Shown here: one piece after another, positions 3,463-63,097 of the stretch
Layout: the number at the start of each line of letters is the position of its first letter
Position numbering within the stretch: position 1 is the first letter of the stretch
Assembly: GCA_031400935.1 (NCBI GenBank)
Contig: JANNQV010000015.1
Coordinates: 62,001 to 126,000, forward strand
Direction: 5' to 3'
Length of the DNA: 64,000 nucleotides
DNA from: Armatimonadota bacterium
Lineage (GTDB): Bacteria; Armatimonadota; Fimbriimonadia; Fimbriimonadales; Fimbriimonadaceae
Made by a program: the position numbers and the translations under genes
The notes under the pieces: model-generated
Databases searched by the model: none
Told to the model about the DNA's origin: nothing
What the model saw: the letters and a program-made list of their open reading frames with translations, nothing else

Positions 3463-3658
3463 CTGCAAGTGGTTGGCAAGTTGTTGGCAGGTAGCCGGCA
3501 AGTGGTTGGCAGTTAGTGTTTGGCGCGTTGGGGTTTAGGGTTTGGGGTGTAGGTTCAATGCTCGGAATTACGACAAAATCCACGATCGGAATTTGTTTTC
3601 CAAGAACGAGTATTTCCCTAGTGATACTAAACCCCATACCCTATATCCTAATCCCCAA
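3463..3658. repeat. Polarised tandem arrays: 11-mer TTGGCAAGTGG and 7-mer GGGTTTA/G left; 7-mer A(A/T)ACCCC right
   Basis: Direct reading. Confidence 0.85.
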
Positions 3659-4564
3659 CTACTCTCCAACCATCTCCCAAATCGTCTTCGGCCAATCGTC
3701 TTTCAAGAGTCGCGAAAGCGACCGATCCGCCAAAACGCGTCCTTCGTTTTGGCACTTTACGCAGTAGTTGGTCTCATTTTCAGCATATTGGATTCGCTGA
3801 ATCGGCAGGCCGCAATCAGGACAAGGCTTTCCGAATTTCCCATGAGCTGCAAAATCGGGACGAAAAGCCGTGATTTGCCCGCGATCTGGAAATCTGCCCT
3901 TGAACTCCTTTCTGAGCCGATCTGTCCATTCGTTTAAGGTGCTTTGTGTCGCGATGTAAAGCCGTTCGATTTCGTCCGGCTTCAGTGCCTGAGTCAGTCT
4001 GACCGGCGAAAGTCTGGCGGCATGAAGAATTTCGTCGGAGTACGCATTCCCGATTCCAGAAAACGCTTTTGGATTTGTCAAAGCGCGCTTCAACGTTCGA
4101 TTTTCGCGGACCAAAACCTCCCGAAATTCCTCAATTGAGCAATCATGTGGTTCGATACCCTGCGCATTAAATTGAGTTAGGTTTTCTAAACCTTGAACCG
4201 CATGAAGCGTTGCCCTTTTGTGGGAGCTTGCTTCTGTGAACAGCAACATTCCATTTTCAAAATCAAATGCAGCTTGCCCCGGTTTCCCACCTGGTTTCCC
4301 ACCACCATCTCCCGGTTTTCGCCAAAGCAAACGCCCCGAAATCATCAAGTGGATCACCAAAAATAGCTCATCTTCGAACCCAAGAACAATGCGTTTGCCC
4401 ATTCGCTCAACGCTTTGAAGTTGCTTACCGCTGAATATGGAAATCGGCGGAGCTACTGATCGAAGGATGAAAGGAGTCAGGCATCGGACTCGACTAAGCT
4501 TTTGCCCAAGAACGAATTCGCGAAGCGATTCGACGTAGATGGTAACGTCGGGGAGTTCAGGCAT
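3659..4564 (-). CDS. Fpg/Nei family DNA glycosylase/AP lyase
   Basis: N-terminal PELPDV, HLMISG, H2TH motif GIGNAYSDE, C-terminal CxxC...CxxCQ zinc finger. Confidence 0.92.
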   Translation of the reverse strand: MPELPDVTIYVESLREFVLGQKLSRVRCLTPFILRSVAPPISIFSGKQLQSVERMGKRIVLGFEDELFLVIHLMISGRLLWRKPGDGGGKPGGKPGQAAFDFENGMLLFTEASSHKRATLHAVQGLENLTQFNAQGIEPHDCSIEEFREVLVRENRTLKRALTNPKAFSGIGNAYSDEILHAARLSPVRLTQALKPDEIERLYIATQSTLNEWTDRLRKEFKGRFPDRGQITAFRPDFAAHGKFGKPCPDCGLPIQRIQYAENETNYCVKCQNEGRVLADRSLSRLLKDDWPKTIWEMVGE

Positions 4565-4567
4565 GCC

Positions 4568-5821
4568 CTATTTCGCGATAACTTTTTCTACGATCCTCGC
4601 AGCCTCAACGAGTTCTTCTTCCGAATTAAGAATATCTGGCCCGAAACGAACGCAGTTGTTTCGCGAATCCGTGTTGACTCCCGCCGCCTTTAGCAATTTG
4701 CAAATTTCCGCGGGATCGGCTGCCGGAACAAGTGAGAATCCACCAAATGAGTCAGCATCAGCAGGAACAAAGCAAAAAACTCCATTCGCAACAAACGCCT
4801 CTCGGAGAATTGCCTGCTGCCTCAAATTGTATTCTCGCAAGCGTTCGACGCCAAGAGCAAGCGTTAACTCTAAGCCTGAAGCGGCCTGATACATGACGAG
4901 CACAGGCGGAGTTGATTCGAGCCAGGAATCGCCCCCTTCTGCAAGTTCAGGCTCGTCCGATCGTTTGTAAGAAAATTTGTCTTTCTTGGCAAACCAGCCG
5001 GTATCCAGAGTCCGCAACGGCGTGTTAAGATGCCGAGGATGTATGGCAAGCCAGCACGCGCCAGGGCCCCCGCGCGTGTATTTGTAGGAGCCTCCAATCA
5101 TAAAGTCCGCACCCGATGATTCAAACTCGACTGGAATGACCCCGACCGCGTGATAAGCGTCAATCAGGCACATCGCCCCAACTCGATGCGCCGCTTCAAT
5201 GATCTCATTTACATTTGAAACAATCTGCCCTGTCGAAAACATGACCAGGGAAACAACAACCAAATCTGTACCGTGGCGAATTGCCTCGAAAACTGATTCG
5301 GAATCAATGATTGGAACTCCTTGATCGTCACATGAAGGCTCTACCCAAGTCACGTCTGCCTTTCGTTTCTTTGTGTAGGTTTTCAATATGAAATCAATGC
5401 TGTCGAACTCGCCACGAGTGGCAACGACCCGAATTGGTCGAGAACTCCCATCCTTGGGCAAAGCGTTCAAGACCGCTCGTAAGCCCTGACCTGCCGATGT
5501 CTTCGGAATCACTGCGCTCGCATCGGAAAGTCCGATCAGTTGAGCAACCTGAGAGCGAAACAGTGATATTGCAGCTGGCCAAGCGTCGTCTTTCCACGAA
5601 TCGTCCATCCGCGAATACCAGAGGTCAAGCCCCTCGCGAATATCCTGTTCCATCTGGTCAAGCGGTCTGCCGAGTGAATGATTCGCCAGATAGATTTCGT
5701 TTCTCTTGCGATCACCTTCAAGCACTCTCGAAAATAGAGGCCAAATGTGCTCTTTCAGCCCATCTTCTGTTAGCGGGCCCGCTCCTACTTTTGCGACCTG
5801 AGTTTCGATGTCTAGGCTCAC
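4568..5821 (-). CDS. kynU: Kynureninase-like PLP enzyme (aminotransferase class V)
   Basis: [15 protein letters not shown] and [11 protein letters not shown] motifs; translationally coupled to kynA. Confidence 0.75.
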
Positions 5822-6660
5822 GTGCCGATTTCCGTCCTCACGTCCCAGAGTTCTGGAAACAGCCTAATCATAAGTCCTTGCCGAAGAAACGGAACTCCAG
5901 AACTACCTCCGGAGCCTCTTTTGAATCCAATGATTCGTTCTACAGTTTTGACGTGCCGGAATCGCCACAAAGCGAACTGTTCTTCAACATCAACAAGCTT
6001 TTCGCACATTTCGTACGCATCCCAATATTCTCTCGGATTGTCGTAAACGATCTTGAAGACTTGAATCAGTTCCTCGCTTTCTTCATAAGGCGCGGACCAA
6101 TCACGTTCTATCGAAGCTTGTGGAACCTTGAATCCTCGTCGGGCTAACAGTCGAAGAAACTCGTCGTACAAACTTGGTGTATTCAGCAATTCCATCAATT
6201 CTGAATGGATTTCTGGCTGATGCTGAAACACCTTTACCGACTTTGCATCTTTGTTTCCGAGAAGGAATTCAATCATCCGATTCTGAAACGACTGCAGCCC
6301 GCTTGCCTGTCCCAAAACGTGCCGAAATTGGCTGTACTCGCTGGGCGTAAGCGTTTCCAAAACCGCCCATTGTTCAAAGAGCATTCGCTGAATCTGCTTG
6401 ACGCGAGCGAGGATTTTGAAACAGGGTTCAAGTTCGTCCTTCTTTACATGTTCCACGGCAGCTCGAAGCTCGTGCACGGCTAATTTCATCCAGAGTTCCG
6501 AAGTCTGGTGCTGAATGATGAACAGCATCTCGTCGTGATGTTCGGGCACGGAAAGCGGCTCTTGGGCATTGAGAATGCGGTCGAGGTGCAAATACCCGCT
6601 GTAGTCGAGCCTCGACTTGAAATCGGTTTGTATCGTCTCTTCAAATTCTCGCTCAGCCAT
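5818..6660 (-). CDS. kynA: Tryptophan 2,3-dioxygenase
   Basis: [24 protein letters not shown] and [14 protein letters not shown] motifs. Confidence 0.95.
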
Positions 6661-6707
6661 GGGTTTCCTAGTGCAACGCTATCACTTATATTCTACTGAG
6701 CCTAGAT

Positions 6708-7151: not shown

Positions 7152-7175
7152 AAACTTGCGACGAGAAAGGGGGCT

Positions 7176-7324
7176 GTTTGTTATCGGTTGTCAGTTATCA
7201 GATGGCGGTTAGCAGTCGTCAGGCTGAGGAGACGCATTATGTTGTAACCAGGTTGCACTGTCGCTTCTCCGCTCTGCATCCAAGCATCTTCCTTCTCCAT
7301 CCAGTCCATCGAATCCATACAAAC
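7176..7324. repeat. Polarised arrays: 7-mer (GTTATCG/GTTGTCA) left; 9-mer TCCATCCAG right
   Basis: Direct reading. Confidence 0.7.
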
Positions 7325-7957: not shown

Positions 7958-8027
7958 GGCTGCTTCCTATTGTAGTTCAACATGAGAGGAAATGCGGATT
8001 TTGGTTTTAAGTTCCCTCCAATGGGAT

Positions 8028-8200
8028 TGTTGGCAAGTGCTGGCAAGTAGTTTGCAAGTAGCAGGCGGTGGGCGGTCAGCAGTTGGCAGTCTGCGGATGC
8101 CAGCAAGCAATTTGTCCAATTCGCAAGCAATGAAGCTAAACATTAGCTGTCAAATCCTTGCCGAATATTAAATTGCGGATACCGCCAACTGCCAACAAAC
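8028..8200. repeat. Polarised arrays: 10/11-mer TGGCAAGT.. and 7-mer GGCAGTT left; 7-mer AACTGCC right
   Basis: Direct reading. Confidence 0.8.
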
Positions 8201-8203
8201 CGG

Positions 8204-11224: not shown

Positions 11225-11400
11225 GGGTTTCGGAATGGGACATTGGGGATGAACGGGGTGAAATGGGTGAATTGAATGGATTGAACGTAAGGAATTACCT
11301 CCCAATAGCCTCGCACTCAATTCACAATCCAAAATCTCACCTTAGTCACCCAGTTCACGAATCACCCACTTCACCCATTTCAAAATATCACCCATTTCAC
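11225..11400. repeat. Polarised arrays: 9-mer GGGTGAAAT left; 7-mer CAAAATC and 9-mer CATTTCACC right
   Basis: Direct reading. Confidence 0.85.
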
Positions 11401-11445: not shown

Positions 11446-12774
11446 ATGCCAGTTTTTGAGTACAAAGCGACAAACGACGAAGGGCAAGCTGTCAACGGCA
11501 CAATGCTAAGCGGGTCGCTGTCTCAGGCTGCCGATGAACTTACGAAATTAGGCTTGAGCGTTAGTTCCATCGGCGCGCCTTCAGGTGTCGGTGATCCGCT
11601 TGTGGATTACATCCCTGAATCTGACAACCGACAACAAACAACTAATAACCAACAACCGACAACTGACTCCATTCCGCCCTCCGCTATACGCTCTCCGCCT
11701 TCTGAAGGTCCACAATCCGCACCTCCCCCCGCGGAGCCTCGTTCAAAATTCATGACCGAGGTGGTCGGCCCACTTGTAAACAAGATTTCGCTCACTCACC
11801 AAGTGATGTTCTTTCGACAGCTTCACACGATGCTGAAGGCTGGCGTACCAATCGTCCAAACCCTTGACACGCTTGCAGGCCAAACCCACGATCTCAGACT
11901 CAAAAGCGTTGTTTGGGAGTTAAAGGGACATGCAATGGAAGGTCGCCCCATTTCTGCTGGGCTTCAACGTTACCCAGAGATGTTCTCGCCATTGATTCTG
12001 AGCCTTATGCGGGTTGGCGAAAGCGGCGGAATGCTCGAAAACTCGTGCAAACAGATTGCTGATTATTTGGATCGGGAAATTGAATTACGGAATCTGGTTC
12101 GGCGGGTGACCATCTATCCGAAACTTGTTTTGGGTACCTCGATGGTTGTTATCTTGGCGGCCAATTTTCTCATCAAATTTATGGGAAAAGCGGGCGGACT
12201 GCAGTCACCCCTGACCGAGCTTTCTACATGGATCATTTTGGGGCCAGTCCTGATCGGGCTGTTTCTCTTCAATCGTGTCGGGCTTGCTAACCCAAGAACT
12301 CGCTTTAATTACGATCAAATCGTATTGAGAGTCCCCTATTTCGGAATCACAATCCAGCAGCTCTGCATGGCAAGGTTTGGGCGGGCGTTTGGGGCACTTT
12401 ACGCTGGTGGGGTAGCCGTCCCGGAAGCCCTTAAACTTGGGGCAGACGCATGCGGGAACGAATATATGCGAGCCTGTTTGCATCCACTATTTAAGAGGCT
12501 TGAAGAAGGCGATGGAATTCACGAAACCCTTCGTTCTTCGGGTGTATTTTCACCCATAGTATTAGACATGGTTCATACCGGAGAAACAACAGGCAATATC
12601 AACGAAATGCTTGTGAAAATGGCGGAGTTTTACGAGGATGAATCGAAGATGCGCTCCACTCAGTCGGCTTATGCCATCGGAGTTTTTGCGTTGGTGGTTG
12701 TCGGAGCTTACATCGGCTTCATCGTCTTTCAGTTCTATTCTCAATATGCGAACAGCATCTCCGTTGACCTGTAA
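11446..12774 (+). CDS. pilC: Type II secretion F family / type IV pilus platform protein
   Basis: MPVFEYKA N-terminus, FFRQLHTMLKAGVP, VGESGGML, TGETTG; repeat-derived linker insert. Confidence 0.9.
   Translation: MPVFEYKATNDEGQAVNGTMLSGSLSQAADELTKLGLSVSSIGAPSGVGDPLVDYIPESDNRQQTTNNQQPTTDSIPPSAIRSPPSEGPQSAPPPAEPRSKFMTEVVGPLVNKISLTHQVMFFRQLHTMLKAGVPIVQTLDTLAGQTHDLRLKSVVWELKGHAMEGRPISAGLQRYPEMFSPLILSLMRVGESGGMLENSCKQIADYLDREIELRNLVRRVTIYPKLVLGTSMVVILAANFLIKFMGKAGGLQSPLTELSTWIILGPVLIGLFLFNRVGLANPRTRFNYDQIVLRVPYFGITIQQLCMARFGRAFGALYAGGVAVPEALKLGADACGNEYMRACLHPLFKRLEEGDGIHETLRSSGVFSPIVLDMVHTGETTGNINEMLVKMAEFYEDESKMRSTQSAYAIGVFALVVVGAYIGFIVFQFYSQYANSISVDL
11623..11704 (+). repeat. In-frame 7-mer arrays inside pilC (ACAACCG x6, then TCCGCCC-type x4)
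   Basis: gacaacc gacaaca aacaact aataacc aacaacc gacaact ... ttccgcc ctccgct atacgct ctccgcc. Confidence 0.8.
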
Positions 12775-12785: not shown

Positions 12786-13871
12786 TTGAAAGCAACTTTT
12801 TACGACATTTTGAGTTTAAAGGAATCTGCATCGCCGGAAGAGATCAAGCGGGCGCACCGGAGATTGGTGATGGAATTTCACCCTGATCGAAATCCGTCAG
12901 CCGACGCCTCTACAAAATTCATTGAAATCACAAAGGCTTACGAGCTGCTTTCTGATCCGATTCGAAGAGCCGAATATGATCGCCTTCGCAAAATAAACGA
13001 AGAATTGCGGAAGAAGAAACAGAGTCAAAGACCGCCAACACCAAAACAACCAACAACTAACAACCAAAAACCAGAATCAAGCGCCGTCAGCCAGAAGCAC
13101 CTAGAAGACAAACTGCGAAAACTCATGACAGTCGGAAATGTCAACGAAGCTGAGATTTTTGCAGGAGAAATCCTGGCAGAAAATCCTCGATCTGCACTTA
13201 GTTATGCAGCATTAGGCGACATCGCAAGGTCTAAGGGGGACTGGAAATTGGCGAGCAAAATGTTTGCCTATGCTGCCCAATTCGACCCCAGGAACGAGCT
13301 TTACCTTCGAAAGCACGAAGAGATGCTGGATCAATTCAACCGTACCGAAATTTCCAGGCATAGCCAAAGCAATCAAGATGGCCGATGGGTTGCGCCCGTT
13401 GTTGGCACCGTGCTAACCGTTGTTGCGGCTTGCTTTGTTGCGTTGAGCCCCGAACAGTCAATATTTGTCAAAGGCACGATCATTTCGAGCTGGACCATGG
13501 GTTTGGTGAGCATGCTGTTCTTTTCAGGAGCAGTGATGGGTGCAACACTCTGTTTGGCAGATTATCTCGACCGTTTTGAAGTCACAACAGCGATGGGACG
13601 GATATCGCCGAACTTGCTCTTTCTCTTTTTGGGCGTAGTCAACTTGTGGCTAGCAGGTGCGATTTACATTGTCATTGGCGGCTTGATGCGTTCGTTTTCG
13701 ATCACACTTTCGCGCCTAATGTTGGGGCTTGTTGGCGTTGTTTCGATTCTGACAATTGGGGCGGCTGGTTCTCATACGATTGATCCCTACGAAGTTTTTC
13801 TTTGGGGTGGTTCTGTGGTTTCTGCTGGCGCATTAATCGGGTGGGCTTTCGGTGATGGGCTGAGGGGGTGA
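12786..13871 (+). CDS. DnaJ-domain protein with TPR-like region and C-terminal TM helices
   Basis: J-domain with HPD motif; five hydrophobic C-terminal segments; TTG start. Confidence 0.8.
   Translation: MKATFYDILSLKESASPEEIKRAHRRLVMEFHPDRNPSADASTKFIEITKAYELLSDPIRRAEYDRLRKINEELRKKKQSQRPPTPKQPTTNNQKPESSAVSQKHLEDKLRKLMTVGNVNEAEIFAGEILAENPRSALSYAALGDIARSKGDWKLASKMFAYAAQFDPRNELYLRKHEEMLDQFNRTEISRHSQSNQDGRWVAPVVGTVLTVVAACFVALSPEQSIFVKGTIISSWTMGLVSMLFFSGAVMGATLCLADYLDRFEVTTAMGRISPNLLFLFLGVVNLWLAGAIYIVIGGLMRSFSITLSRLMLGLVGVVSILTIGAAGSHTIDPYEVFLWGGSVVSAGALIGWAFGDGLRG
13030..13075 (+). repeat. In-frame 7-mer array inside the DnaJ gene
   Basis: aaacaac caacaac taacaac caaaaac. Confidence 0.7.
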
Positions 13872-13883
13872 CTCTTGAACTGA

Positions 13884-13995
13884 GTGAAATGGATGAATGG
13901 GGTGAAGTGGGACAGATTTTGGATTGTGGGTTTTGGGTGAGAGCGGATTGTTTCATTCGCCCATTTCACCCAATTCATCCTCTTCATCCCCTTCA
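13884..13995. repeat. Polarised arrays: 9-mer and 7-mer GATTTTG left; 9-mer right
   Basis: Direct reading. Confidence 0.85.
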
Positions 13996-14025: not shown

Positions 14026-14211
14026 TTGATGAACGTATCAAGCTCAACTGTCGTCCAGCAAGCTCTTCGGGCCTATCAATCTGCTGAGACACAGCAGCCA
14101 GCTGCCCAAATTGCGATTCTAAAGAAAGCTCTTGATGCACAAAAGGGCGAGGCCGCGCAATTGCTTCAGGTGCTTCAAGGTAAAGGGCAAATCATAGATT
14201 TACAGGCTTAG
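14026..14211 (+). CDS. YjfB-like (putative motility) small protein
   Basis: IAILKKALDAQ...AAQLL...GKGQIID pattern. Confidence 0.7.
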   Translation: MMNVSSSTVVQQALRAYQSAETQQPAAQIAILKKALDAQKGEAAQLLQVLQGKGQIIDLQA

Positions 14212-14260
14212 TTTTGTTCGGTTTAGTTTGCTTTGGCTCGGATTAACTCGGGTTTGTTGG
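14211..14260. repeat. 10-mer array (GTTCGGTTTA type), G-arm only
   Basis: Direct reading; same family as 21190-21228. Confidence 0.7.
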
Positions 14261-14299
14261 AATCGGCATGAAAAATGAGTTCGACGAGTCCTACATGGC

Positions 14300-15538
14300 C
14301 TAAGTGTCCAACTTTTCCAGTTGCCACGCCACTCCACCGATCCATGTCTGATGCACAACAGGCGCCCCAACCCAATACGGAATTTCGCGCTCGTCATCGC
14401 AATCCCAGATCACTAGGTCGGCAGACTTTCCAGGTTCTAAAGAACCAACTTTCGCAGTCAGTCCGAGCGACTTTGCTGCATGAACAGTACACCCCGCCAA
14501 AGCTTCCATTGGTGTCATTTTCATTTGAGTGCAACCTAAAGACATTGCAAACGGCAAGCTTGGAGTTGGCGATGAGCCCGGATTGAAATCAGATGCAAGG
14601 ACCGTAGGCAAACCCGCATCCAGCATCCTTCTTGCATCCGGATATTTCGACTTCCCAAGGCAAAAAACGCTCGCCGGAAGTAAAATTGGGACTGTTCCCG
14701 ACTTCGCCAGGGCTTCAATTCCTAACACGTTGGAGTTTTCCAAATGGTCGGCTGAAACAGCGCCAAGTTCTGCTGCAAGCGCTGCACCATTTCCATCCGA
14801 AAGCTGATCAACGTGCATCTTCAATCCAAGCCCGTATTGCATGGCAGCCGTTGCCAATCTGCGAGCATCTTCATGGTCGAAGTAGTCATTCTCAAAGAAA
14901 ATATCAACCCATTGCGGACGAGCTGAATCTTCAAGTGCCATCGCCGCGGGCAGAATTTCGTTAAGCGCGTATTGGACATAGCCATTTTTGTTTCCCGCGA
15001 ATTCTGGAGGAACGGCATGGAGCGCGAGCAGAGTTTTCGAAATGGAAACACCCGTTTCCTTTTCGATTCTTGCTATTGCCCGAAGGCACTTCAATTCGCT
15101 TTCAATATCGAGTCCGTAGCCAGTTTTAGCTTCGATTCTAGTGGTTCCGTTTCGAACCATCCAGTCAATGCGCTTCTTTCCGAGTGCAACCAGATCGTCT
15201 TCAGTAGCCGCTCGTGTCGCCTTTACAGTTGAGAGAATCCCGCCTCCGCTGGCGGCAATTTCCTCGTAGGTTGCACCCTCAGATCGCATCTGGAATTCGT
15301 TCGCTCTATTTCCGGCAAAAACCAAATGGGCGTGCGCGTCAATTAGGCCCGGGGTTACAAGTCGCTTGCGTGCATCAAAAATGTCGGCGCTATGAGCTAG
15401 ACGTTCAACTTCGGATCGAAAACCAGCTGCGACTATCTTGCCGTCCTCGATCAAAAGCGCAGCGTCGTCATAAATTTCTAGGTTTTTTGCAGCAGCTCGG
15501 ACAATCAACCTTCCAATATTGGTGACAAGAGTATTCAC
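14300..15538 (-). CDS. hutI: Imidazolonepropionase
   Basis: PGLIDAHAHLVFAGNR, GGGILSTV, EAKTGYGL, HVDQL, SDFNPGSS. Confidence 0.95.
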   Translation of the reverse strand: MNTLVTNIGRLIVRAAAKNLEIYDDAALLIEDGKIVAAGFRSEVERLAHSADIFDARKRLVTPGLIDAHAHLVFAGNRANEFQMRSEGATYEEIAASGGGILSTVKATRAATEDDLVALGKKRIDWMVRNGTTRIEAKTGYGLDIESELKCLRAIARIEKETGVSISKTLLALHAVPPEFAGNKNGYVQYALNEILPAAMALEDSARPQWVDIFFENDYFDHEDARRLATAAMQYGLGLKMHVDQLSDGNGAALAAELGAVSADHLENSNVLGIEALAKSGTVPILLPASVFCLGKSKYPDARRMLDAGLPTVLASDFNPGSSPTPSLPFAMSLGCTQMKMTPMEALAGCTVHAAKSLGLTAKVGSLEPGKSADLVIWDCDDEREIPYWVGAPVVHQTWIGGVAWQLEKLDT

Positions 15539-15623
15539 GTACTTTTATCATGGCATGACATTCGGGAGTGCAACAGACTCCAAGTTCGCGCACTCCCAAT
15601 GGCAAAGATGGCAAAATCATATA

Positions 15624-16953: not shown

Positions 16954-16960
16954 TTTAACT

Positions 16961-17007
16961 CCACCCCCAACCCCCTCCTCATTCTCGTACCTCGAATAAG
17001 GAGGGGG
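16961..17007. repeat. C-rich REP-like hairpin (CCACCCC..CCCCTCC...GGAGGGG family), intergenic copy
   Basis: ccccctcctcattc / gaataaggaggggg inverted pair, 13/14 match. Confidence 0.75.
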
Positions 17008-17014
17008 CTTATTA

Positions 17015-20377: not shown

Positions 20378-20743
20378 TCATAAAAGCCCCAACATTAACT
20401 TGACTTCATCCGATACCATATCGAGGCTGAAAGGAGGCTCCCAAGTCAGATTCACTTTCGCAGTTTTGACGCCCTTTGTGTCTCGAACGGAATCCTCCAC
20501 TTTGGCGGGCAACGCCTCTGCTACCGGGCACATGGGGGAAGTGAGGGTCATCGTAACAGTAACGTTCGCGTCATCGTCAATTGCAACTCCATAGATGAGT
20601 CCAAGATCGTAGACGTTGACCGGAATTTCGGGATCGTAGACGTAACGAATAGATTCGATTACTTCGTTTTCGAGCATTGATTTTTCGATGGCATTGAGCT
20701 TTTTCGGCTCATCCGGGATATGCTTTTCAACTGGGTGGGGCAT
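20378..20743 (-). CDS. sufT: DUF59 Fe-S assembly protein
   Basis: VYDPEIPVNVYDLGLIY and MTLTSPMCP motifs; start moved to ATG 20743. Confidence 0.88.
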   Translation of the reverse strand: MPHPVEKHIPDEPKKLNAIEKSMLENEVIESIRYVYDPEIPVNVYDLGLIYGVAIDDDANVTVTMTLTSPMCPVAEALPAKVEDSVRDTKGVKTAKVNLTWEPPFSLDMVSDEVKLMLGLL

Positions 20744-20747
20744 AGGA

Positions 20748-21188
20748 TTATTCGCTTGTAGCGGTCCCTCCACCTTCAAGAGCCTGCTTCAACGCATGCC
20801 AAGCCAAAACTGCACATTTGATTCTTACTGGAAACTCTCGTACTCCTGACAATGCCAAAAGCTCATCGTCTTCAAAATACGCTTCGCCTCCAGTTAGCAT
20901 ATCCTGCATCGAATTAAAGAGTTCACGGGCTTCAGCAACGGTTTTGCCCTTAACGGCTTCGGTCAACAACGAAGCACTTGCCATCGAAATCGCGCATCCG
21001 TGGCCGTCGAACTTGATGTCTTTCACGACGTCGTGGTCTACTTCCAGTTCCACATGAATCGTGTCGCCGCACAGTGGGTTGTATCCATCAGCTGAACCCG
21101 TGGCGTGTTCAAGCCTCCCCTTGTTTCGGGGGCGCTTATTGTGATCGAGGATCACTTCCTGATACAGTTCGCGGAGTTCGGGGTTCAT
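20748..21188 (-). CDS. sufU: SUF system NifU-family protein
   Basis: LYQEVILDH, NPLCGD, GCAIS, RIKCAVLAW. Confidence 0.92.
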   Translation of the reverse strand: MNPELRELYQEVILDHNKRPRNKGRLEHATGSADGYNPLCGDTIHVELEVDHDVVKDIKFDGHGCAISMASASLLTEAVKGKTVAEARELFNSMQDMLTGGEAYFEDDELLALSGVREFPVRIKCAVLAWHALKQALEGGGTATSE

Positions 21189-21189
21189 T

Positions 21190-21316
21190 GGGTTTTGTTC
21201 GGGTTAGTTCGGTGTGCTTCGGGTTCGTGTCTTCCTTTCAATTGAGCCAACGCCCCATAAGTCACATATGTCCTATATGTCCCATTTGTCCTACTACTGC
21301 AACCCATCCAGTCCAA
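21190..21316. repeat. Polarised arrays: 10-mer GTTCGGGTTA left; 9-mer GTCCTATAT right
   Basis: Direct reading. Confidence 0.8.
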
Positions 21317-21321
21317 ACAAC

Positions 21322-21504
21322 TCATACTTTTTTAGGTTTCTCCAAAAGTTCACGCAAATACGTTAGGATCCCATACCAAATTGACAGGCCGAAAAGAAAA
21401 ATTGCAAGTTTCATCACTGGTGATGAACCCACTTTTACCGCAAACCATAAGGAAGAGGCAATCACAATGACCATTACAATCGCAGATATTCTGGGCAGGC
21501 TCAT
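21322..21504 (-). CDS. Small hypothetical 2-TM protein
   Basis: 60 aa, two hydrophobic helices; ATGA overlap with sufS stop. Confidence 0.55.
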   Translation of the reverse strand: MSLPRISAIVMVIVIASSLWFAVKVGSSPVMKLAIFLFGLSIWYGILTYLRELLEKPKKV

Positions 21505-22802: not shown

Positions 22803-22813
22803 TTTCGCTCCAG

Positions 22814-24088: not shown

Positions 24089-24093
24089 GTTTA

Positions 24094-24852: not shown

Positions 24853-24947
24853 GACTCTGTTTAGTATCTCCGATCAAGGGATTTTCCGGCAGGAACCATC
24901 GTGGCCCTCTGACGCAAAACTGCGCAAATTTTCTCCGGTAGTAAATT

Positions 24948-24976: not shown

Positions 24977-24985
24977 ATTGGGATC

Positions 24986-25139
24986 AATGCTAGGAATTGT
25001 TGGGTATTGCTGGGGGTAGTTGGGCTTTGTCCACTTTCCGAATTCTCAGATAGCTGAACTGATCAAGCCAATTCAAGCAATTCGCGGCAGCCCCGCCATT
25101 CCTAGCAACTCCCAGCCATCCCCAACAAATCCTAGCAAC
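24986..25139. repeat. Polarised inverted 10-mer arrays (TGCTAGGAAT / ATTCCTAGCA)
   Basis: Direct reading. Confidence 0.85.
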
Positions 25140-26289: not shown

Positions 26290-26418
26290 TGGGAGAGTCG
26301 GGGAGTCAGAGAGTGGAGAGTGAGGAGAGCTGAGAACGGATTGTCGGATGAATTAAGCCTAGGTTCCGTCCGACCTGTCCTAAAAATCCCACAAATCCGC
26401 TCACCGCCAACTGCTAAA
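26290..26418. repeat. Polarised arrays: GAGAGT-type left; AAATCC and AACTGC types right
   Basis: Direct reading. Confidence 0.7.
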
Positions 26419-29997: not shown

Positions 29998-30122
29998 ATT
30001 TTGGATTTTGGATTGCTGATTGAGGATTGGCAAAATAAGCAGAAAATGGAGATTCCCGAACCACCAACCGCAATCTGCTACCTGCCAACAACCTGCAAAC
30101 CACCTGCCAACCACTTGCCAAC
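29998..30122. repeat. Polarised arrays: 7-mer GATTTTG left; 11-mer CCACTTGCCAA right
   Basis: Direct reading. Confidence 0.8.
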
Positions 30123-30150
30123 GCACCCCTTTCCCGCCTATCATAAGGAA

Positions 30151-34784: not shown

Positions 34785-34924
34785 GTTATCGGTTGTTGGT
34801 TGTTGGTTGTCGGTTATTAGTTATTGGTTATTGCTTCTTGGTTGTTGGAAAGCAGTTCAAACTGGCGTGAAATGCCGTCTGCTAACTGCTAACTGCCTAC
34901 TGCTAACAACCAACAACCGATAAC
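34785..34924. repeat. Polarised 7-mer arrays with a perfect 20-bp terminal inverted repeat
   Basis: gttatcggttgttggttgtt (34785-34804) / aacaaccaacaaccgataac (34905-34924). Confidence 0.9.
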
Positions 34925-35774: not shown

Positions 35775-35945
35775 GTTGTTGGGTCATGGGGTTACTGCGT
35801 CGTAGGGTCGCTGACGGATTTTGGATTTTTTTGAAGCATACGTCCCTTATGACACTTTTGTCCCATGCGTCACAATCTGCCAACTGCCAAACTAATGACC
35901 CAATGACCCAATGACCTACCTCGCATCCCTATACAACCCATACCT
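35775..35945. repeat. Polarised multi-family stack (8-mer, 7-mer, 9-mer arrays)
   Basis: gggtcatg gggttact gcgtcgta gggtcgct, ggatttt; then gtcccttat.., aactgcc, caatgacc x3, ccctatac. Confidence 0.8.
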
Positions 35946-38097: not shown

Positions 38098-38129
38098 GCG
38101 AGAAGTCCTCTGCTATATGGTAGCGCGTT

Positions 38130-38252
38130 TTTGGGTTTGGGGTCTGGGTTTGGGGTTTGGAAATCGATTGGATGAGTTGAATGACTTGATTGCAGGCTAC
38201 GCCTTCGACGCTTAGCTATTCCAAGACCCTATACCCCATACCCAAAACCCTA
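38130..38252. repeat. Polarised inverted 7-mer arrays (GGGTTTG / ATACCCC)
   Basis: Direct reading. Confidence 0.85.
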
Positions 38253-45525: not shown

Positions 45526-45540
45526 GACAGAATTTCTCCT

Positions 45541-45650
45541 GTTTTTGGTTATTTGTTGTTGGTTATTGGTTGTTGGTTGTCTCGACTTGGAATAAGGGTT
45601 GCTGGACCTGGGTCAAATTAGTTCGAGGATAACGGAAAACCGACAACCGA
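45541..45650. repeat. Polarised 7-mer arrays (GGTTGTT / ACAACCG) at the tRNA 3' flank
   Basis: Direct reading. Confidence 0.8.
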
Positions 45651-45655: not shown

Positions 45656-45731
45656 TGGTGAGTCGGCTGGGACTCGAACCCAGGACCCACGCCTTAAAAG
45701 GGCGTTGCTCTACCAACTGAGCTACCGACTC
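45656..45731 (-). tRNA. tRNA-Lys(UUU)
   Basis: Reverse complement GAGTCGG TAGCTCAGTTGGTAGAGC A ACGCC-CTTTTAA-GGCGT ... GGTTCGAGTCC ... CCGACTC ACCA; 76 nt with encoded CCA. Confidence 0.97.
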
Positions 45732-45770
45732 ACAGTCCAAGATGGTACCCGGAGAAGGCTTCTGAGCGCG

Positions 45771-45858
45771 GAATGGAGCGCTGAGCTCAATGTCTACAAA
45801 ACTCACTCACTCCTGAATTTCGGCTCCGCATTCTGGTGCCCGGACGTCCACGTCCGGC
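45771..45858 (+). repeat. Composite REP-like element, copy A
   Basis: gaatggagcgc..gagct-[variable]-gctccgcatt-tggt-ccggacgt-cc-acgtccgg. Confidence 0.75.
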
Positions 45859-45975
45859 TGATCATGATTCAAACTTACTAAAGTAGATCGTGCATGTTTG
45901 CAATAGAAAGTGCAACTCGTGTTCTGAGTTTTACTCAGACAGTTCTATGCAGTTAAGCGAAATGTTATGCTGTTG

Positions 45976-46064
45976 GCCGGAGGTGGACGTCCGGGGACCC
46001 AAAAATGCGGAGCTGAGGCAAATGAACTAGAAAGCTGCGACCAATTTGAGCCTGCGCTCCATTC
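45976..46064 (-). repeat. Composite REP-like element, copy B (inverted relative to A)
   Basis: Reverse complement reads gaatggagcgcaggctcaa-[variable]-gcctcagctccgcattt-ttgggt-ccccggacgtccacctccggc. Confidence 0.75.
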
Positions 46065-46078
46065 ATTGCAGCAAGTAA

Positions 46079-46324
46079 AATCGCGCAAAAGTAAATTTGA
46101 AGGCAATAGGAGACGGCTACTTGGATTTGTCCGGCTGGACAAAAGGCGTAATGTGGGTAAACGCTCACAACCTTGGGCGGTATTGGAAGATTGGGGCGCA
46201 ACAGGCACTTTTTGTACCGGGATGCTGGCTGTGGAAAAGCGAAAATGTGATCGAAGTATTAGAACTCGAAAATGCAGGAACGGCAACCATTCCTGGCGGG
46301 ACTCAGCCGATTTGGAAGAAGTGA
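46079..46324 (+). pseudogene. C-terminal remnant of a GH35 beta-galactosidase
   Basis: GDGYLDLSGWTKGVMWVNAHNLGRYWKIGAQQALFVPGCWL matches the GH35 C-terminal beta-domain; in-frame stop at 46076; no catalytic domain. Confidence 0.8.
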
Positions 46325-48631: not shown

Positions 48632-48751
48632 GGTGGCGGTTAGCAGTTGGCGGTAGGCAGTTAGCGGTTGGCAGTTGTCGGTTGTCGGATGTCAGTAATT
48701 CTGTTCCCAATACCCTTCACCCAATACCCAAAACCCTTCACCCTTCATCCT
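48632..48751. repeat. Polarised arrays: 7-mer GGCAGTT left; 7-mer ATACCCA/TTCACCC right
   Basis: Direct reading. Confidence 0.85.
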
Positions 48752-49408
48752 TCACCCGACCCTAACCATCGTAACCACACCATAATCAAGCCGAATGGGA
48801 AGCCCCTTATCATCAAGAACGGCTTCACCTTCTGGCGAACGAACTAGATGCCCTGCAACCTGAACGCCGGCGACTTTCACCTTTGTCGGACCCATATAAG
48901 TCAGTTCTGATATCCGCCACTCTAGCTTCGTTGCATCGAAGTGGTAGTACTTCTCTCTTTGCCCCACCTTTGGCTTGTCCCTCAAAAACCAGAACTCGTT
49001 CGTGCACTTGCGCGGCGCAGTATTCACGAGCGGAATATCTTTGACCGTTCGTTTCCCGCGTTCGTCAACCACTGCGTGAGCTCCTTTGGCATCAAAGGTG
49101 ACCGTCACGGAAACTCGAAAAGCTGGCCTTTGGGAAATTGTTTCTTGAAAGACACGGACCGGAGAACCATCTTTGGCGTAAGTACGTTCGGTTCGAACTC
49201 TCACGGTACGTCCTTCTCGCCCAGAAAAGTCCATGGTCAGGGAAATTACTTTTGAACCTTCTGCGGTTAGCTTGTGCGAATACGTAACGACAGATTCAGG
49301 AAGGCCCGAAGAAGTGGCTTTGAGCCTAACCTGAGAAATTGCTTGTGATGCGATAATGAAAGTGAGGAATACCGTTGCAATTAGGGCACATTTTCGATGT
49401 AGTCTCAT
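48752..49408 (-). CDS. Hypothetical secreted protein
   Basis: Signal peptide; ATGA overlap with the upstream oxidoreductase. Confidence 0.7.
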   Translation of the reverse strand: MRLHRKCALIATVFLTFIIASQAISQVRLKATSSGLPESVVTYSHKLTAEGSKVISLTMDFSGREGRTVRVRTERTYAKDGSPVRVFQETISQRPAFRVSVTVTFDAKGAHAVVDERGKRTVKDIPLVNTAPRKCTNEFWFLRDKPKVGQREKYYHFDATKLEWRISELTYMGPTKVKVAGVQVAGHLVRSPEGEAVLDDKGLPIRLDYGVVTMVRVG

Positions 49409-52109: not shown

Positions 52110-52242
52110 ATGGGGATGAAAGGGGTGAACTCGTGACGGGGGTGAAGCGGGTGAATTGGGTGACTTGAGCGATTCGGTCAGATCATTCCGGTCATCAACC
52201 TCACCCACTTCACCTACTTCACCCAAATCACAACGTCATCCC
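52110..52242. repeat. Polarised inverted 9-mer arrays (GGGTGAANN / NNTTCACCC)
   Basis: Direct reading. Confidence 0.85.
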
Positions 52243-52245: not shown

Positions 52246-53748
52246 TCAGCTCCCATCTCTCTTGCTCGCAGGGCGCGTTCGCATCGAAGCCCATTCTCTC
52301 AGCTCTTCAATCTCTTCTTTCATCATTACGCTTAGAGGTACGATGGCGTCTGATTCGTCAATGAGGTCTTGCTGGGCGAGTTCTTTCTTCTTTGCAAATG
52401 CGCGATACAACGCGCCAACAACAACTTGCTCAATTTCGGCACCGCTGAACCCGATCGCAACTTTGCCTAATGCTTTGACGTCGAAGTTCTTTGGATCGCG
52501 CTTTCTCTTTTTGATGTGAATGGCAAAAATGACTTCTCGTTCTGGCTGGTCCGGAAGATCAACAAAGAAGATCTCATCGAATCGTCCTTTTCGTAACATT
52601 TCAGGCGGCAATTTTGAAACATCATTGGCAGTTGCGATGAGGAAAACTGGCTTCTGTTTTTCTTGCATCCAGGTCAAGAATGTAGCGAAAACTCGGGCTG
52701 TCGTTCCCGAATCGCTGACCCCACTGCCCGACATTCCTGCAAAACCCTTTTCGAGTTCATCTGCCCACAAAATACAGGGAGCAACAGATTCGGCGACCTT
52801 GATCGCACGGCGCATGTTTTCCTCGCTTTGACCAACCAATGAACCGAATATTCGCCCCACATCCATCTTCAGCATTGGCAGTTGCCAATGTGCTGCGACA
52901 GCTTTAGCCAGCAGAGATTTTCCGCAGCCCTGAACACCCAAAAGTAGAATTCCCTTTGGCGCCGGAATGCCAAATTCTTTGGCGCGATCGGTAAAGCTTT
53001 CTGTTCGCTGTTCGAGCCACTCTTTAAGCAGTTCCATCCCCCCAACATCTGACAAATTGTTTTCGGCTTCGTGGTATTCCAAGAGTCCAGATTTTCTAAC
53101 AATCTGTTTCTTTTCCTCCATGATTACTTCGACATCAAATTTCTTTTTCTCGACAAAGCTTCGAGCAAAAACATTTTCGATTTCGTCAATAGTCAGGCCT
53201 TGAGCGGACTTAATCAGCGTCTCCCTTTGGAGCTTTGTGAGCTTCGCATTGATTTTTTCGTCACCTTTGACGGCTTCAACAACTTGGTCGAGGCATTGGC
53301 CGATTTCCGCTTGGTTCGGCATTCCAAAATCAATCACTGTGATGTCCTTTTCTAGCTCGACAGGGAGATTGAGGACGGGCCCCATTAGGACAATTGTTTG
53401 CGCCCGATCCTTTAGCCTTACGCTTAGATCACGTAGCAACCGAATGACTCGATAGTCTTTGAGATAGTTATGAAAATCTTTGAGGAGAAAGACGGTGTAT
53501 TCAGATGATTCATGGATTGTTGCAAGGACTTCGAGTTCAGATGGAAGGGTCGTCGGTTTGCTTGGGCCGCTTGTTCGAACGACTGCCGGCTTCATCCCTT
53601 GGGTTACGGACCAAGTATGCAGCGTCCGATTTAGCCCTTTGCAGATGGTTGAAAGGGCATCTTCAACCCGTCGTTCTTCCCACGAGACCATGTAGAGAAT
53701 TGAGTACTTGGCCCGTATCAGGATTTCGATTTCTGCGGTAGCTTCCAT
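52246..53748 (-). CDS. Ycf46-like AAA ATPase
   Basis: N-terminal LKDFH domain, Walker [28 protein letters not shown]. Confidence 0.85.
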
Positions 53749-53797
53749 TTGCCAATGATGCTACCTTGGTGGAGTTGAAAGGGTTGCATGAGCCCGG

Positions 53798-55336
53798 TCA
53801 CCTTCCACGAAACAAGCCCCCGAGAACCCCACGAATCAATTGCCGCCCAACTTGCGAACCGGCACTGCGAAGAACGCTTTTTGTCAAAGATTCCAGCATA
53901 GTGTCAGACCTTCGGGCAGGCTGGCGTTCCGATTTTGCCTCTTGGCGGGCGTCAACTTCCGCCTGATGTTCAGCTTGCTTTTGCTGCCTTTCGTATTGAA
54001 CCTGAAATTCCTTGTTTTTCTGTGCCTCTTCTGCCTGCAAAGTAGCTGCTTCGGCACGAACTTTCAAAACTTCAAAAGCAGATTCTCGATCAATCGTTTC
54101 CTCATACTTGCCGCTTACCGGGCTGCCTCCTAAAACGGTTTGCCTTTCTTCAGGAGTCAACGGCCCTAGTCGGCTGGCGGGAGGGCGAATCAGGGTCTTT
54201 TGGACGATTGAAGGAATGCCTTTGTCTTCAAGTAGCGAGACCAATGCTTCGCCCACACCCAAGTTCAAAATCGCTTCTGCGGTATCGAAATCAGGGTTTG
54301 CCCTGAAATTTTCAGCAGTTGCACGAACGTCCTTTTGATCCTTAGGTGTGAAGGCGCGAAGGGCGTGCTGTACCCGGTTTCCAAGTTGAGATAAAACTGA
54401 TTCTGGGATGTCCATCGGGTTTTGGCTGATGAAGAAAATCCCAATTCCTTTCGATCGAATGAGGCGAACCACTTGCTCAATCTTTTGAACAAGAGCAGTT
54501 GGGGCGTCCGCAAACAGTAGATGCGCTTCGTCAAAGAAGAAAACGAGCTTCGGTTTGTCCAGATCGCCGACTTCAGGCAAGTCTTCAAAAAGTTCAGAAA
54601 GCAGCCAAAGCAGAAACGTGGAATAAAGTCGCGGACTTTGCATCAGCTTGTCCGCCGCAAGGATGTTTACAATTCCTTTGCCGTCGAATGAAGTTCGCAT
54701 TAGGTCCTTTAAATCTAGCGCAGGTTCGCCAAAGAACTCCTCGGCGCCCTGTTGTTCGAGAACCAAGAGTGCTCTCTGAATTGCACCGACTGTCGCTGGA
54801 GCAACGTTGCCGTATAGAGTCGTAATTTCATCTGCATGTTCCGCAACGTGCTGGAGCATCGCACGAAGGTCCTTCAGATCAAGGAGCAACATCCCATTGT
54901 CATCCGCAATTTTGAATGCCAGGTTCAGAACGCCTTCTTGAATGTCGTTAAGGTCCAAAAGCCGCGAAAGAAGCAAAGGCCCCATTTCTGAAATTGTCGT
55001 CCGAATCCGGTGTCCTTGCTCTCCAAACAAGTCCCAAAAAACGGTCGGAAATCCTGAATAAGTGTAAGGATCAAGCCCGATCAGTTTTGCTCGTTCCTCG
55101 AGTTTCGGCTTTCCGCCACCAGGTTGCGACATACCTGCCAAATCACCCTTTACGTCCGCCATAAACACGGGCACTCCTCGTGAAACAAAGCCCTCAGCGA
55201 GCACTTGAAGTGTTACAGTCTTACCTGTGCCAGTAGCTCCCGCGATCAGGCCATGCCTGTTTCCGTATTTCGTCAAAAGCTCAACTGGAACGGAGCCAAG
55301 TCCAAGAAAAATCCTTTCGGGAGCAAGCAAATCCAT
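53798..55336 (-). CDS. DUF853/YjgR-like HerA-family ATPase
   Basis: [43 protein letters not shown]. Confidence 0.9.
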
Positions 55337-61889: not shown

Positions 61890-62641
61890 TCTTGCCCCTT
61901 CAAACAAATCACATGAACCCTGTCGCTCTTTGCCCGAACCGGGTCCAAACTATACGAATGGAACATTTGAACCTGCTCGAACCCTGCGTCGAACAGCATA
62001 TCCCGAACATCTTCGAGTGGGTACGCTCTTTGCCGATGCGTTTCATGAAGCTCAACTCCGTCTTTCCAGAACGTCATATCCACCCGAATTAGCATCGTCT
62101 CAGGGTCCCAATGGCCTGTCCAATCGTATCGGAGACTTGCTTTCTGACTCAGCTTTTTTTGAGTGAACATCTCCTTCTGAAAGGCATATTCGGTGTTCAA
62201 ATCGAAGATCCAGGAAGCGCCTTCAGGCAAATGCGCAGCCACTCTATGAAACGCCCTTTGCAGGTTTTCAGGCTCCAAAATGTAGTTTAGGCTATCGAAA
62301 AATGAGAATGCGGCTTCGAATTGTCTCCCCATATCAAAATAGGCAGCATCGGCGACTTCATAGCGAATGTTGAAAAGACCGAGTTTTGCCTTTTCGCGTG
62401 CTTTAGAAATCATCGCCTCGCTAAGGTCAAAGCCTTCTAACTGAAAGCCTTCTTGGGTCAAAAGCTCAGCTACAGTGCCTGTCCCACAGCACACATCGAG
62501 AATCTGCTTGGGCTTAACTCCTTGATGCGATAGAAGCAGTAAATAGTAGCCGACCCACATCCGGTAGGGGACGTTGTCCATCAGCTCATCGTAAATTGGC
62601 GCGACTGGGCCAAATTCTTCTGTTCCGACTCGCGCTTCCAT
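61886..62641 (-). CDS. Class I SAM-dependent methyltransferase
   Basis: YDELM..VPY, LDVCCGTG, DSLNY, FDLNT; start moved to ATG 62641. Confidence 0.88.
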   Translation of the reverse strand: MEARVGTEEFGPVAPIYDELMDNVPYRMWVGYYLLLLSHQGVKPKQILDVCCGTGTVAELLTQEGFQLEGFDLSEAMISKAREKAKLGLFNIRYEVADAAYFDMGRQFEAAFSFFDSLNYILEPENLQRAFHRVAAHLPEGASWIFDLNTEYAFQKEMFTQKKLSQKASLRYDWTGHWDPETMLIRVDMTFWKDGVELHETHRQRAYPLEDVRDMLFDAGFEQVQMFHSYSLDPVRAKSDRVHVICLKGQE

Positions 62642-62651
62642 CGAAATGAAT

Positions 62652-63008
62652 CTAACCCGATTTCCAGTAAGTTTCTCTTGGCATCTCACGAGTTTCGAGA
62701 GTAACTTTTGCTTCACCAGCTTCTAAGGACTCTGAAAATAACCTCTTCAAAACTTTGAACATCTCATCTCCGATCTTCTTTAGAAGTTCAGGATCACGAC
62801 CAGAAACGAGGCTCAAAGTGACATGGGTAAAGCCTTCTGGAGCACGCTCATCGGTCACCCAGTTCGTGTGAAGCGTGTGATATGCCTTGACGGAAGCTGG
62901 GTCAATCGAGTCGTGCTGACAAAGCTCTCCTGCCAGCGCAACCAAGATATCGGGGATATCCATGTTTTCCGTGAGGTTGGCACTGGTTCGAAGGTGGATA
63001 TGGGGCAT
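62652..63008 (-). CDS. 5-carboxymethyl-2-hydroxymuconate isomerase (tautomerase) family protein
   Basis: N-terminal MPHI..SANL with catalytic Pro, FTHV...GR; start moved to ATG 63008. Confidence 0.8.
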   Translation of the reverse strand: MPHIHLRTSANLTENMDIPDILVALAGELCQHDSIDPASVKAYHTLHTNWVTDERAPEGFTHVTLSLVSGRDPELLKKIGDEMFKVLKRLFSESLEAGEAKVTLETREMPRETYWKSG

Positions 63009-63038
63009 ACAGTTATTTGATACCATGAAGGGGCGGGA

Positions 63039-63097
63039 AGTTGTTGGTTGTTGGTTGTTGGTTGTTTGTTGTGGGTTTGGAAGTTGTTGGCAGGTTG
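63039..63097. repeat. 7-mer GTTGTTG array followed by an 11-mer unit, G-arm
   Basis: Direct reading. Confidence 0.8.

Follow-up and report, generated by a model that had tools for sequence, protein, structure and literature searches.

What are the short tandem repeats that recur between the genes of this Armatimonadota genome, and why do they always face the same way? In the window, by which we mean the whole 64,000-nucleotide stretch that was analysed, the original prediction had listed 15 intergenic gaps with degenerate arrays, each two-armed site running from a G-rich arm through a spacer to a C-rich arm. It read them either as head-to-head fusions of repeat-extended ends or as the ends of a small mobile cassette. 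Heptameric repeats of cyanobacteria are known as STRR. We found no PF00124 match in this genome (95.6% complete), so the arrays fall outside STRR in the strict sense, which implies a cyanobacterial host; they belong to the class of polarised heptamer inverted repeats (intergenic 7-mers, about four units, convergent pairs), which periods of 8-11 extend. All 15 gaps carry the arrays described, and Table 1 adds further ones. A separately assembled contig, which may derive from the window's own source run, is identical over 20600-31175, so four of the window arrays are not assembly artefacts.

Table 1. Arrays in the window, with folding z-scores and the state of the corresponding gap in the same-genus genome G001.
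Position	Strand	Arrangement	z	G001
3464..3655		11-mer G-arm (3464-3518), then matched GGGTTTA pair (G-arm 3531-3553, C-arm 3628-3655)	-5.1 (inner pair)	Matched 11-mer pair retained, so one 11-mer arm overwritten in window
7174..7322		GGTTGTC/GGCAGTT G-arm and 9-mer C-arm, unmatched
8027..8201		11-mer and 7-mer G-arms, short 7-mer C-arm		Matched 11-mer pair
11246..11400		Matched GGGTGAAAT 9-mer pair	-3.2	Filled by different families
11621..11667	+	7-mer C-arm, in frame, N-terminal linker of PilC/GspF-like ORF (added here)		Another 7-mer family
13045..13073	+	7-mer C-arm, in frame, within DnaJ-domain ORF (added here)		Common to G001
13882..13995		Nested: 9-mer G- and C-arms enclosing a GATTTTG G-arm that has lost its C-arm	-3.3
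14212..14311		10-mer GTTCGG-type G-arm and 9-mer GTCCTA-type C-arm (added here)		REP doublet around 10-mer pair
21196..21293		10-mer G-arm and 9-mer C-arm; partial form of recurring 10-mer[9-mer/9-mer]10-mer composite		Short gap without arrays
24988..25136		Matched TGCTAGGAAT 10-mer pair		Half REP in its place
26292..26417		GGAGAG-type G-arm and mixed 7-mer C-arms
29998..30127		GATTTTG G-arm and 11-mer C-arm, unmatched	-1.5	Identical combination
34785..34923		Matched GGTTGTT pair; strongest hairpin of ten folded	-7.8
35780..35945		Stack: 8-mer and 7-mer G-arms; 9-, 7-, 8- and 7-mer C-arms
38129..38250		Matched GGGTTT(A/G) pair	-3.2	Present, interior differs
45540..45650		GGTTGTT G-arm and remnant C-arm		Both arms, homologous spacer between
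48633..48757		GGCAGTT G-arm and CCCAATA/ACCCTTC C-arms, unmatched; no hairpin	+2.0
52113..52225		Matched 9-mer pair	-3.9	C-arm missing between short direct repeats
63040..63090		Lone GGTTGTT G-arm (added here)

Arrays of this kind are abundant throughout the genome. On contig C15, a family-free period detector found 58 arrays, compared with 5 in a fourth-order Markov copy. Ten family patterns, derived from arrays of this same genome, gave 521 hits genome-wide (436 of them with 3-5 units) against 19 in a fifth-order Markov genome; GCGATCGC alone occupies 58 sites in 2.97 Mb. When clustered at 200 nt, the hits formed 338 sites, of which 105 were G-then-C, none C-then-G, one C-G-C and 232 single-armed; the family-free detector returned 84, 0, 1 and 263 in the same categories among 348 sites. 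The predicted order of arms at two-armed sites therefore holds well beyond the window, and sites combining several families keep it in all but one of 69 cases. Gene orientation at two-armed sites (46 tandem, 25 divergent and 23 convergent gaps, with 6 more inside ORFs) is similar to background (616/289/233). With 25 two-armed sites between divergent genes and no enrichment after 3' ends or between convergent genes, intrinsic terminators do not explain the arrays, as had been argued from the window.

The two arms had also been described as often belonging to different families. Such mismatched sites exist, but they are not the ground state: both arms come from one family in 65 of the 105 two-armed sites (10,000 shuffles gave a mean of 29 and at most 45), and the median folding z is -4.2 for matched sites compared with -0.4 for the 40 unmatched ones. 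In its basic form an element consists of two inverted arms of the same family, not two unrelated arms.

Arms of these families, in this polarity, flank four-helix-bundle genes (TIGR02436/PF05635, named '23S rRNA IVS protein'), and such loci mostly lie after the stop codon of one host gene and before the start codon of the following one. The original prediction had suggested such a link, and it is borne out both in relatives and in other phyla. Among 70 of the 89 PF05635 matches in 61 related genomes, 66 could be labelled by eye with an arm unit, at periods of 7-11. G001 has four such genes, flanked by families also found in the window (L001, 11-mer; L031, 10-mer; L032, GGTTGTT; L033, GATTTTC). 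The genome studied here has a single one (G000:C25), which lies between GGGTTTA-family arms and is fused to an N-terminal 240 aa without a Pfam family that match unnamed clusters only; the window holds neither such a gene nor a remnant, in agreement with the first reading of it. The best structural hit was PDB 2GSC (XCC0516), a pentamer of the same family. Across phyla, 75 of 80 loci had enough flanking sequence; 41 were two-armed and 34 of these were matched (shuffle mean 7.2, maximum 16). G exceeded C upstream at 43 loci versus 8, C exceeded G downstream at 41 versus 7, and arm-like periodicity within the gene was seen in 3 of 80. Outside the host family nearly all arms are 7-mers (50/54 upstream).

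Gene and arms also keep company in other ways. The GGCAGTT/GGTTGTT triple occurs in 9 of 60 relatives, all 9 of which have a PF05635 gene above the cut-off, a gene present in 24 of the 60 (p about 9e-5, with kin not independent). Arm period requires 13 changes on the protein tree, compared with 20.3 on shuffling (minimum 18 of 300); this was a quick tree of 123 columns with period labels assigned by eye, and relatedness alone can yield few changes. Cassette arms include the 7-, 9-, 10- (TGCTAGGAAT) and 11-mer types, and none with 8-mer GGTCATTG or 10-mer GTTCGG arms was seen among the loci inspected. Across 300 genomes of the phylum, the 11-mer family appeared in two others, as single arms with no cassette gene adjoining. 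Arm pairing was not biased to the sense strand of the gene (23/56; 18/41), and thus lends no support to selection at the RNA level.

If the arrays are the ends of a repeat-flanked cassette that reuses the same sites, alleles with and without it should be found at one place, and single operon junctions do occur empty, with a full cassette or with gene-less arms in different genomes. At a junction resembling that of E1 alpha/beta dehydrogenase genes, whose stop and start overlap in this genome, 30 genomes yielded 2 cassettes, 3 gene-less arrays and 25 junctions without arrays. groES and groEL are adjacent at 26 of 30 loci, with 9 cassettes and 3 gene-less pairs; one of these pairs belongs to this genome and another, which is nested, to G019 (these gene names were read from translated sequences, not from family searches). 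No target-site duplication was evident at the empty and filled junctions inspected by eye. A single clade of all 16 groES-groEL four-helix-bundle genes was rejected (p-AU 3e-9) and one of the 13 core genes was not (p-AU 0.41), so that rewriting of the arms in place is as possible as repeated invasion.

Within the genus the arrays turn over. Among 213 gaps orthologous with G001, 34 and 30 carry arrays in the respective genomes and 25 do so in both; the family set is the same in 8 of these, overlapping in 15 and disjoint in 2. Comparisons with other contigs offered no usable strain-level empty alleles, as joins at arrays came from other repeat copies. Stacked, mismatched and one-armed sites arise through deletions and through the overwriting of part of an older element by a newer one, and the comparison with G001 places this overwriting inside the loop of the older element. 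As the newer element replaces part of the older, all G-arms stay on the left and all C-arms on the right.

The polarity, the degenerate units and the unique spacers would equally be predicted, whatever the gene orientation, if a telomerase-like or terminal-transferase activity extended the two 3' ends at a break with G-rich repeats and these ends were joined head to head around filler DNA. We regard this as extremely improbable. The arms of an element mirror each other, sharing variants beyond what independent addition predicts (they were the more alike, relative to same-family arms elsewhere, in 41 versus 20 of 63 pairs, p=0.008), and mismatched arms are secondary in the light of G001. Spacers at 45541 and 52110 are orthologous between the genomes while their arms change, arm period tracks the phylogeny of the protein encoded between the arms, and other phyla show the arm-gene-arm layout as well, with units specific to the gene. 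Nor is there a dedicated reverse transcriptase for telomerase-like or DRT tandem-repeat synthesis: the only PF00078 match in the genome is best modelled as a retron/anti-phage enzyme and lies in an unrelated context. An origin within the host would have slippage make an array, template switching mirror it into a hairpin and selection keep it as an mRNA-processing or terminator element, with four-helix-bundle genes merely sitting inside. The 25 gaps shared between congeners, the near-perfect long runs that betray slippage, the slightly raised likeness of paired arms and the start of G-arms a median of 13.5 nt after the stop codon (198 arms) all fit, as do the conserved locations that Rehm et al. 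(PMC4692102) report for repeats in Xcc. It gives no reason, however, for a polarity of 105:0 or a closed set of about ten families, does not account for arm period following the protein tree or for abrupt whole-element replacement at one gap, and convergent gaps are not enriched; we judge it improbable.

One 10-mer family is copied as part of RAYT-type REP doublets: five places, spread over two genomes, have 10-mer units between REPs that resemble one another to about 80% along their length, and whole-element copying was seen only for 10-mer composites. The arrays could then be another class of REPIN, hairpins moved by RAYT (HUH tyrosine) transposases, with the four-helix-bundle gene as occasional cargo. 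The genome has three RAYT-like matches, and its REP doublets, a family separate from the arrays, share their architecture (15 pairs face inward and none the other way, and each spacer is unique). The RAYT at C15:229355 is flanked by REPs in a gap where G001 has a four-helix-bundle cassette; no arms were seen beside the gene on C50, and the weak match on C63 adjoins one arm in host-gene orientation. We nevertheless consider this reading quite improbable, because RAYT-like matches occur in 57 of the 61 related genomes and two tested array families in only 6 and 10, the GGCAGTT type co-occurs with PF05635, and the arms are tandem words rather than short palindromes. The neighbourhood of most arrays is free of REPs (of 75 REP motif hits, 5 lie within 200 nt of arrays), and array-bearing gaps are not enriched in REPs (3/35 versus 12/71, p=0.38).

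We also searched for other cargo. Between distant G- and C-arms we found 13 candidate intervals below 2.5 kb, which hold ordinary genes or nothing apart from the fused four-helix-bundle gene. GxxExxY genes had been named as having similar arrays; this genome has none, and at the 20 loci detected in 12 of the 61 related genomes the repeats are, by eye, CACAGAG/CGCAGAG-like and outside the window's families. Uma2 genes are absent from the genome, and its one DUF559 gene sits among CCCCTCC-type hairpins of another family.

Parts of this system have been described before. Polarised pairs were published for Xanthomonas, without a gene link (Rehm et al. 2015, PMC4692102), in a study of GGGAATC in Xanthomonas and GGGGA(C/T)T in Nostoc that discusses G-quadruplexes and whose main text does not contain the term 'four helix'. 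Xcc has 70 convergent GGGAATC pairs and a pair in groES-groEL, and a table in that paper places an array directly upstream of XCC0516. As here, those repeats are intergenic, mostly of four units and in convergent G-/C-arm pairs at any gene orientation, with spacers of 20-135 nt among the rows listed and some mismatched partners ('other'); Xanthomonas has one family of period 7, whereas this genome has about ten of periods 7-11, stacked and nested. In the 23S rRNA intervening sequence of Coxiella burnetii, the S23p ORF of the same protein family lies between terminal inverted repeats, tandem heptamers of strain-variable copy number precede it and the first repeat is where RNase III cleaves (Warrier et al. 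2016, PMC4990558). Our sites, in contrast, are junctions of protein-coding genes, nearly all without an ORF, and RNase III cleavage is hypothetical here; Rfam identified one tRNA only in the window, and the sites are flanked by protein-coding genes. Like REPINs (Bertels and Rainey 2011, PMC3116915), the arrays are non-autonomous, hairpin-forming inverted doublets with spacers, present in hundreds per genome, with singlets as decay remnants and few associated genes. They differ in having tandem 7-11-mer arms instead of palindromic REPs and an associated gene without a known catalytic site, and alongside them this genome has a distinct set of true REPs and RAYTs. Avd of diversity-generating retroelements, a structural relative of PF05635, forms a pentameric barrel in which all five protomers touch one RNA stem-loop (bioRxiv 10.1101/2023.10.23.563531, PMC10053308); no such retroelement reverse transcriptase was found in this genome, and nucleic-acid binding by the cassette proteins is hypothetical. 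Searches of the open-access literature yielded no paper that connects these repeats with the gene.

Cassette arms together with gene-less spread explain the observations best, and we put the probability of this reading as a whole at roughly two in three. It is likely that what we see are the inverted arms belonging to a small selfish cassette, mostly as gene-less derivatives. The cassette would comprise a G-rich tandem arm, a four-helix-bundle gene and a complementary C-rich arm, and the window sites would descend from gene-bearing copies. Counting against such descent for each site, no coding remnant was found in the window or in any other spacer of the genome, and 75 spacers of at least 25 nt were unique apart from arm-like sequence. 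Gene-less pairs may have spread in the manner of REPINs, as non-autonomous hairpins (about 340 sites for one gene), by a nuclease or recombination activity acting in trans and entering existing hairpin loops; this route is somewhat doubtful, and no mobilising enzyme or activity was found. Slippage would alter arm copy number, and conserved operon flanks probably let full cassettes move from one genome to another through homologous recombination. In transcripts the arms would form a long stem, cleavable by RNase III by analogy with 23S rRNA intervening sequences, and the pentameric protein plausibly binds its own arm of 3-6 units.

The polarised pairs were already known from Xanthomonas; what this genome contributes is alleles in three states, nested elements and periods of 8-11. 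Long bacterial 7-mer repeats and the PF05635 family are two old puzzles, now tied together by comparable alleles (empty, cassette and arms only). More speculatively, and on balance unlikely, four-helix-bundle pentamers may be the sequence-reading subunit of a widespread, previously undescribed mobile-element system that lacks its own enzyme, in which each protein lineage would recognise a particular word of 7-11 nt, with each protomer reading one unit, and recruit a host or borrowed enzyme for loop-targeted insertion of cassettes and gene-less hairpins at operon junctions, both arms being rewritten together when the word changes. Conserved junctions and cognate pairs of protein and word, with differing periods in one genus, mean that small constructs could be used to test binding specificity, processing by RNase III, and mobility. 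If true, a sequence-reading pentamer would explain the heptamer repeats of bacteria and reveal what the '23S rRNA IVS protein' does.

All arrays named in the original prediction were recovered by Tandem Repeats Finder and direct reading. The genes of the window are ordinary housekeeping genes, and no photosynthetic reaction-centre gene was found in its genome (G000). On contig C15, a family-free detector returned 58 arrays compared with 5 in a Markov control, and ten degenerate family patterns, derived from G000's own arrays, gave 521 matches in G000 versus 19 in a Markov genome. Clustering pattern matches at 200 nt yielded 338 sites: 105 had a G-rich arm followed by a C-rich arm, none was reversed, one read C–G–C and 232 had one detected arm. 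The family-free array set gave 84, 0 and 1, respectively, and the polarity is therefore no artefact of the chosen patterns; the arm order predicted from the window holds genome-wide. Flanking-gene orientation at two-armed sites was close to background.

Mismatched arms, stressed in the original prediction, do exist (40 of 105 two-armed sites), but arms of the same family prevail, occurring at 65 sites against a shuffle mean of 29 and a maximum of 45. Matched sites fold strongly, whereas unmatched sites do not; ten of the window's sites were also folded individually. Within families, the two arms of a site were more alike than arms elsewhere (41 versus 20 of 63, P = 0.008). Spacers are unique in sequence, as are those of the true REP (short palindromic repeat) doublets of G000. 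C-arms inside long ORFs lay on the coding strand in 36 cases and on the opposite strand in 15, by crude gene calls.

To compare alleles, we paired 213 orthologous gaps over about 385 kb with the same-genus genome G001. Arrays occupied 34 gaps in G000, 30 in G001 and 25 in both; among these 25, 8 had identical family content in the two genomes, 15 shared some families and 2 shared none. Empty and filled versions of the same gap, the comparison originally proposed, were both found: site 21190 has no array in G001. At 3463 and 8028, G001 has a matched pair of 11-mer arms, whose C-arm is lost or replaced in G000; at 52110 the C-arm is missing in G001, between short direct repeats; at 45541 the spacer is homologous in both genomes and most of the C-arm is gone in G000; and at 11225 the element has been completely exchanged. 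The order G before C was broken in just 1 of 69 multi-family sites, a pattern that insertion of new elements into the loop, and not next to the older element, would produce.

The same families and polarity flank genes for a four-helix-bundle protein (TIGR02436/PF05635, '23S rRNA IVS protein'), bearing out a link suggested with the prediction; the GxxExxY genes named alongside are flanked by other repeat families. G000 has a single such gene, with GGGTTTA-family arms in the expected polarity. PF05635 matches occurred in 32 of 61 related genomes, and 66 of the 70 matches examined (out of 89) were labelled, by eye, with tandem arms, G-rich upstream and complementary downstream, with periods of 7 to 11. 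The four copies in G001 carry arms of the window's 11-mer, TGCTAGGAAT-type 10-mer, GGTTGTT and GATTTTC families; in other genera, some copies lie between 9-mers resembling GGGTGAAAT and TATAGGAC (loci L018, L046; L027–L029); and all nine relatives with the GGCAGTT/GGTTGTT triple also carry the gene. Across other phyla (75 of 80 loci compared), both arms were present at 41 loci and matched at 34 of these (mean of 7.2 after shuffling); polarity agreed in about five-sixths, and the period was almost always 7. The nearest structure is 2GSC, the XCC0516 pentamer. Many cassette proteins (L001–L070) have a VRE(E/D)xxxY-like peptide, seen by eye, at the C terminus, and some at the N terminus. DUF559 was rejected as the gene of the window's arrays, its flanking repeats being of another family.

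Two junctions were found with, without and partly filled by the cassette of gene and arms. The E1 alpha/beta-like junction was array-free in 25 of 30 genomes, held full cassettes with differing arms in two and gene-less arrays in three; in G000 it is array-free, with overlapping stop and start codons. Between groES and groEL, 9 of 26 adjacent pairs had a cassette and 3 had gene-less arm pairs. The remnant in G000 shares an arm junction with the cassette of G001, and the related genome G019 has a nested gene-less pair of two families. Arm period requires 13 changes on the protein tree, compared with 20.3 after shuffling. A single clade was rejected for all 16 groES–groEL four-helix-bundle genes, but not for a 13-gene core; either re-invasion or in-place rewriting of both arms may apply at this site.

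A 10-mer[9-mer|9-mer]10-mer composite recurred at 4 of 25 9-mer sites under a strict test (P = 0.0015), and more were seen by eye. Pairs of 10-mers inside REP doublets of the type associated with RAYT (an HUH tyrosine transposase) were about 80% alike in the two genomes, at five places in all; no other observation points directly to the copying of entire units. G000 has 15 inward-facing REP doublets, and a test for co-location of REPs and arrays in this genome showed none.

Features by position (window numbering unless a contig or locus is named)
Position	Feature	Remarks
G000:C15:62001-126000	Window	Genome 2.97 Mb, 95.6% complete
11621-11667; 13045-13073	C-arms read in frame	Linkers of PilC/GspF-like and DnaJ-domain proteins; family in PilC-like linker differs between G000 and G001
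15530-15600; 14200-14320	RAYT-type REP doublet remnant	Both places carry complete doublets around 10-mer arms in G001
16954-17010	CCCCTCC...GGAGGGG hairpin family	23 motif matches
45659-45731	tRNA gene adjoining 45541 array	Gene content after tRNA differs from G001
45760-46080; 63200-63320	Third palindromic family	GCGGAGC / GGACGTCC words
52246-55336	AAA+ ATPase beside HerA/CedD-like ATPase	Weak model matches
C15:229139-229906	RAYT-like gene with REP flanks	Gap holds four-helix-bundle cassette in G001
C17:73765-75276 (L091:3265-4776)	Retron-like reverse transcriptase	C-terminal extension; all matches below model cut-offs; probably an anti-phage gene
C20:71869-72177	Single DUF559 gene of G000	Flanked by CCCCTCC...GGAGGGG-type hairpins
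C25:66287-67406 (L016)	Four-helix-bundle gene of G000, inside arms	372-aa fusion; unnamed widespread 240-aa domain in front, possibly cargo taken up by the cassette
C63:17200-17400	Set related to third palindromic family	Adjoins weak RAYT-like match
L084:4735-4985 (G001:C294)	250-nt insert absent from G000	Further palindromic family and 11-mer C-arm

The arrays are best read as the arms of a selfish four-helix-bundle cassette together with gene-less derivatives resembling REPINs (inverted REP doublets). Arms would be lengthened by slippage and overwritten by nesting and deletion. Telomere-like addition of repeats to ends, also put forward originally, is disfavoured, since the sole reverse transcriptase in G000 is retron-like and the arms of a site resemble each other. 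A search of the spacers for four-helix-bundle coding remnants found none, and a test for RNA-strand preference of arm pairing showed none. By analogy with the Coxiella IVS, in which heptamers lie ahead of the ORF and mark where RNase III cuts (PMC4990558), transcribed arms of the cassette may form an RNase III substrate; in Avd, a relative of the four-helix-bundle protein, all five protomers are reported to grip an RNA stem-loop (bioRxiv 10.1101/2023.10.23.563531).

Repeats of this class have been described before. Rehm et al. (2015, PMC4692102) reported 70 convergent GGGAATC pairs in Xcc, and their table places one pair in groES–groEL and an array over the start of XCC0516, a protein on which their main text does not comment; nor does the accessible text of the Beggiatoaceae TAACTGA paper (PMC4679880) mention the four-helix-bundle family. 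We found no published link between such repeats and this gene in the open-access literature. The arrays are a multi-family, nested variant of this described but unexplained class, to which the present comparison adds evidence at the level of alleles.
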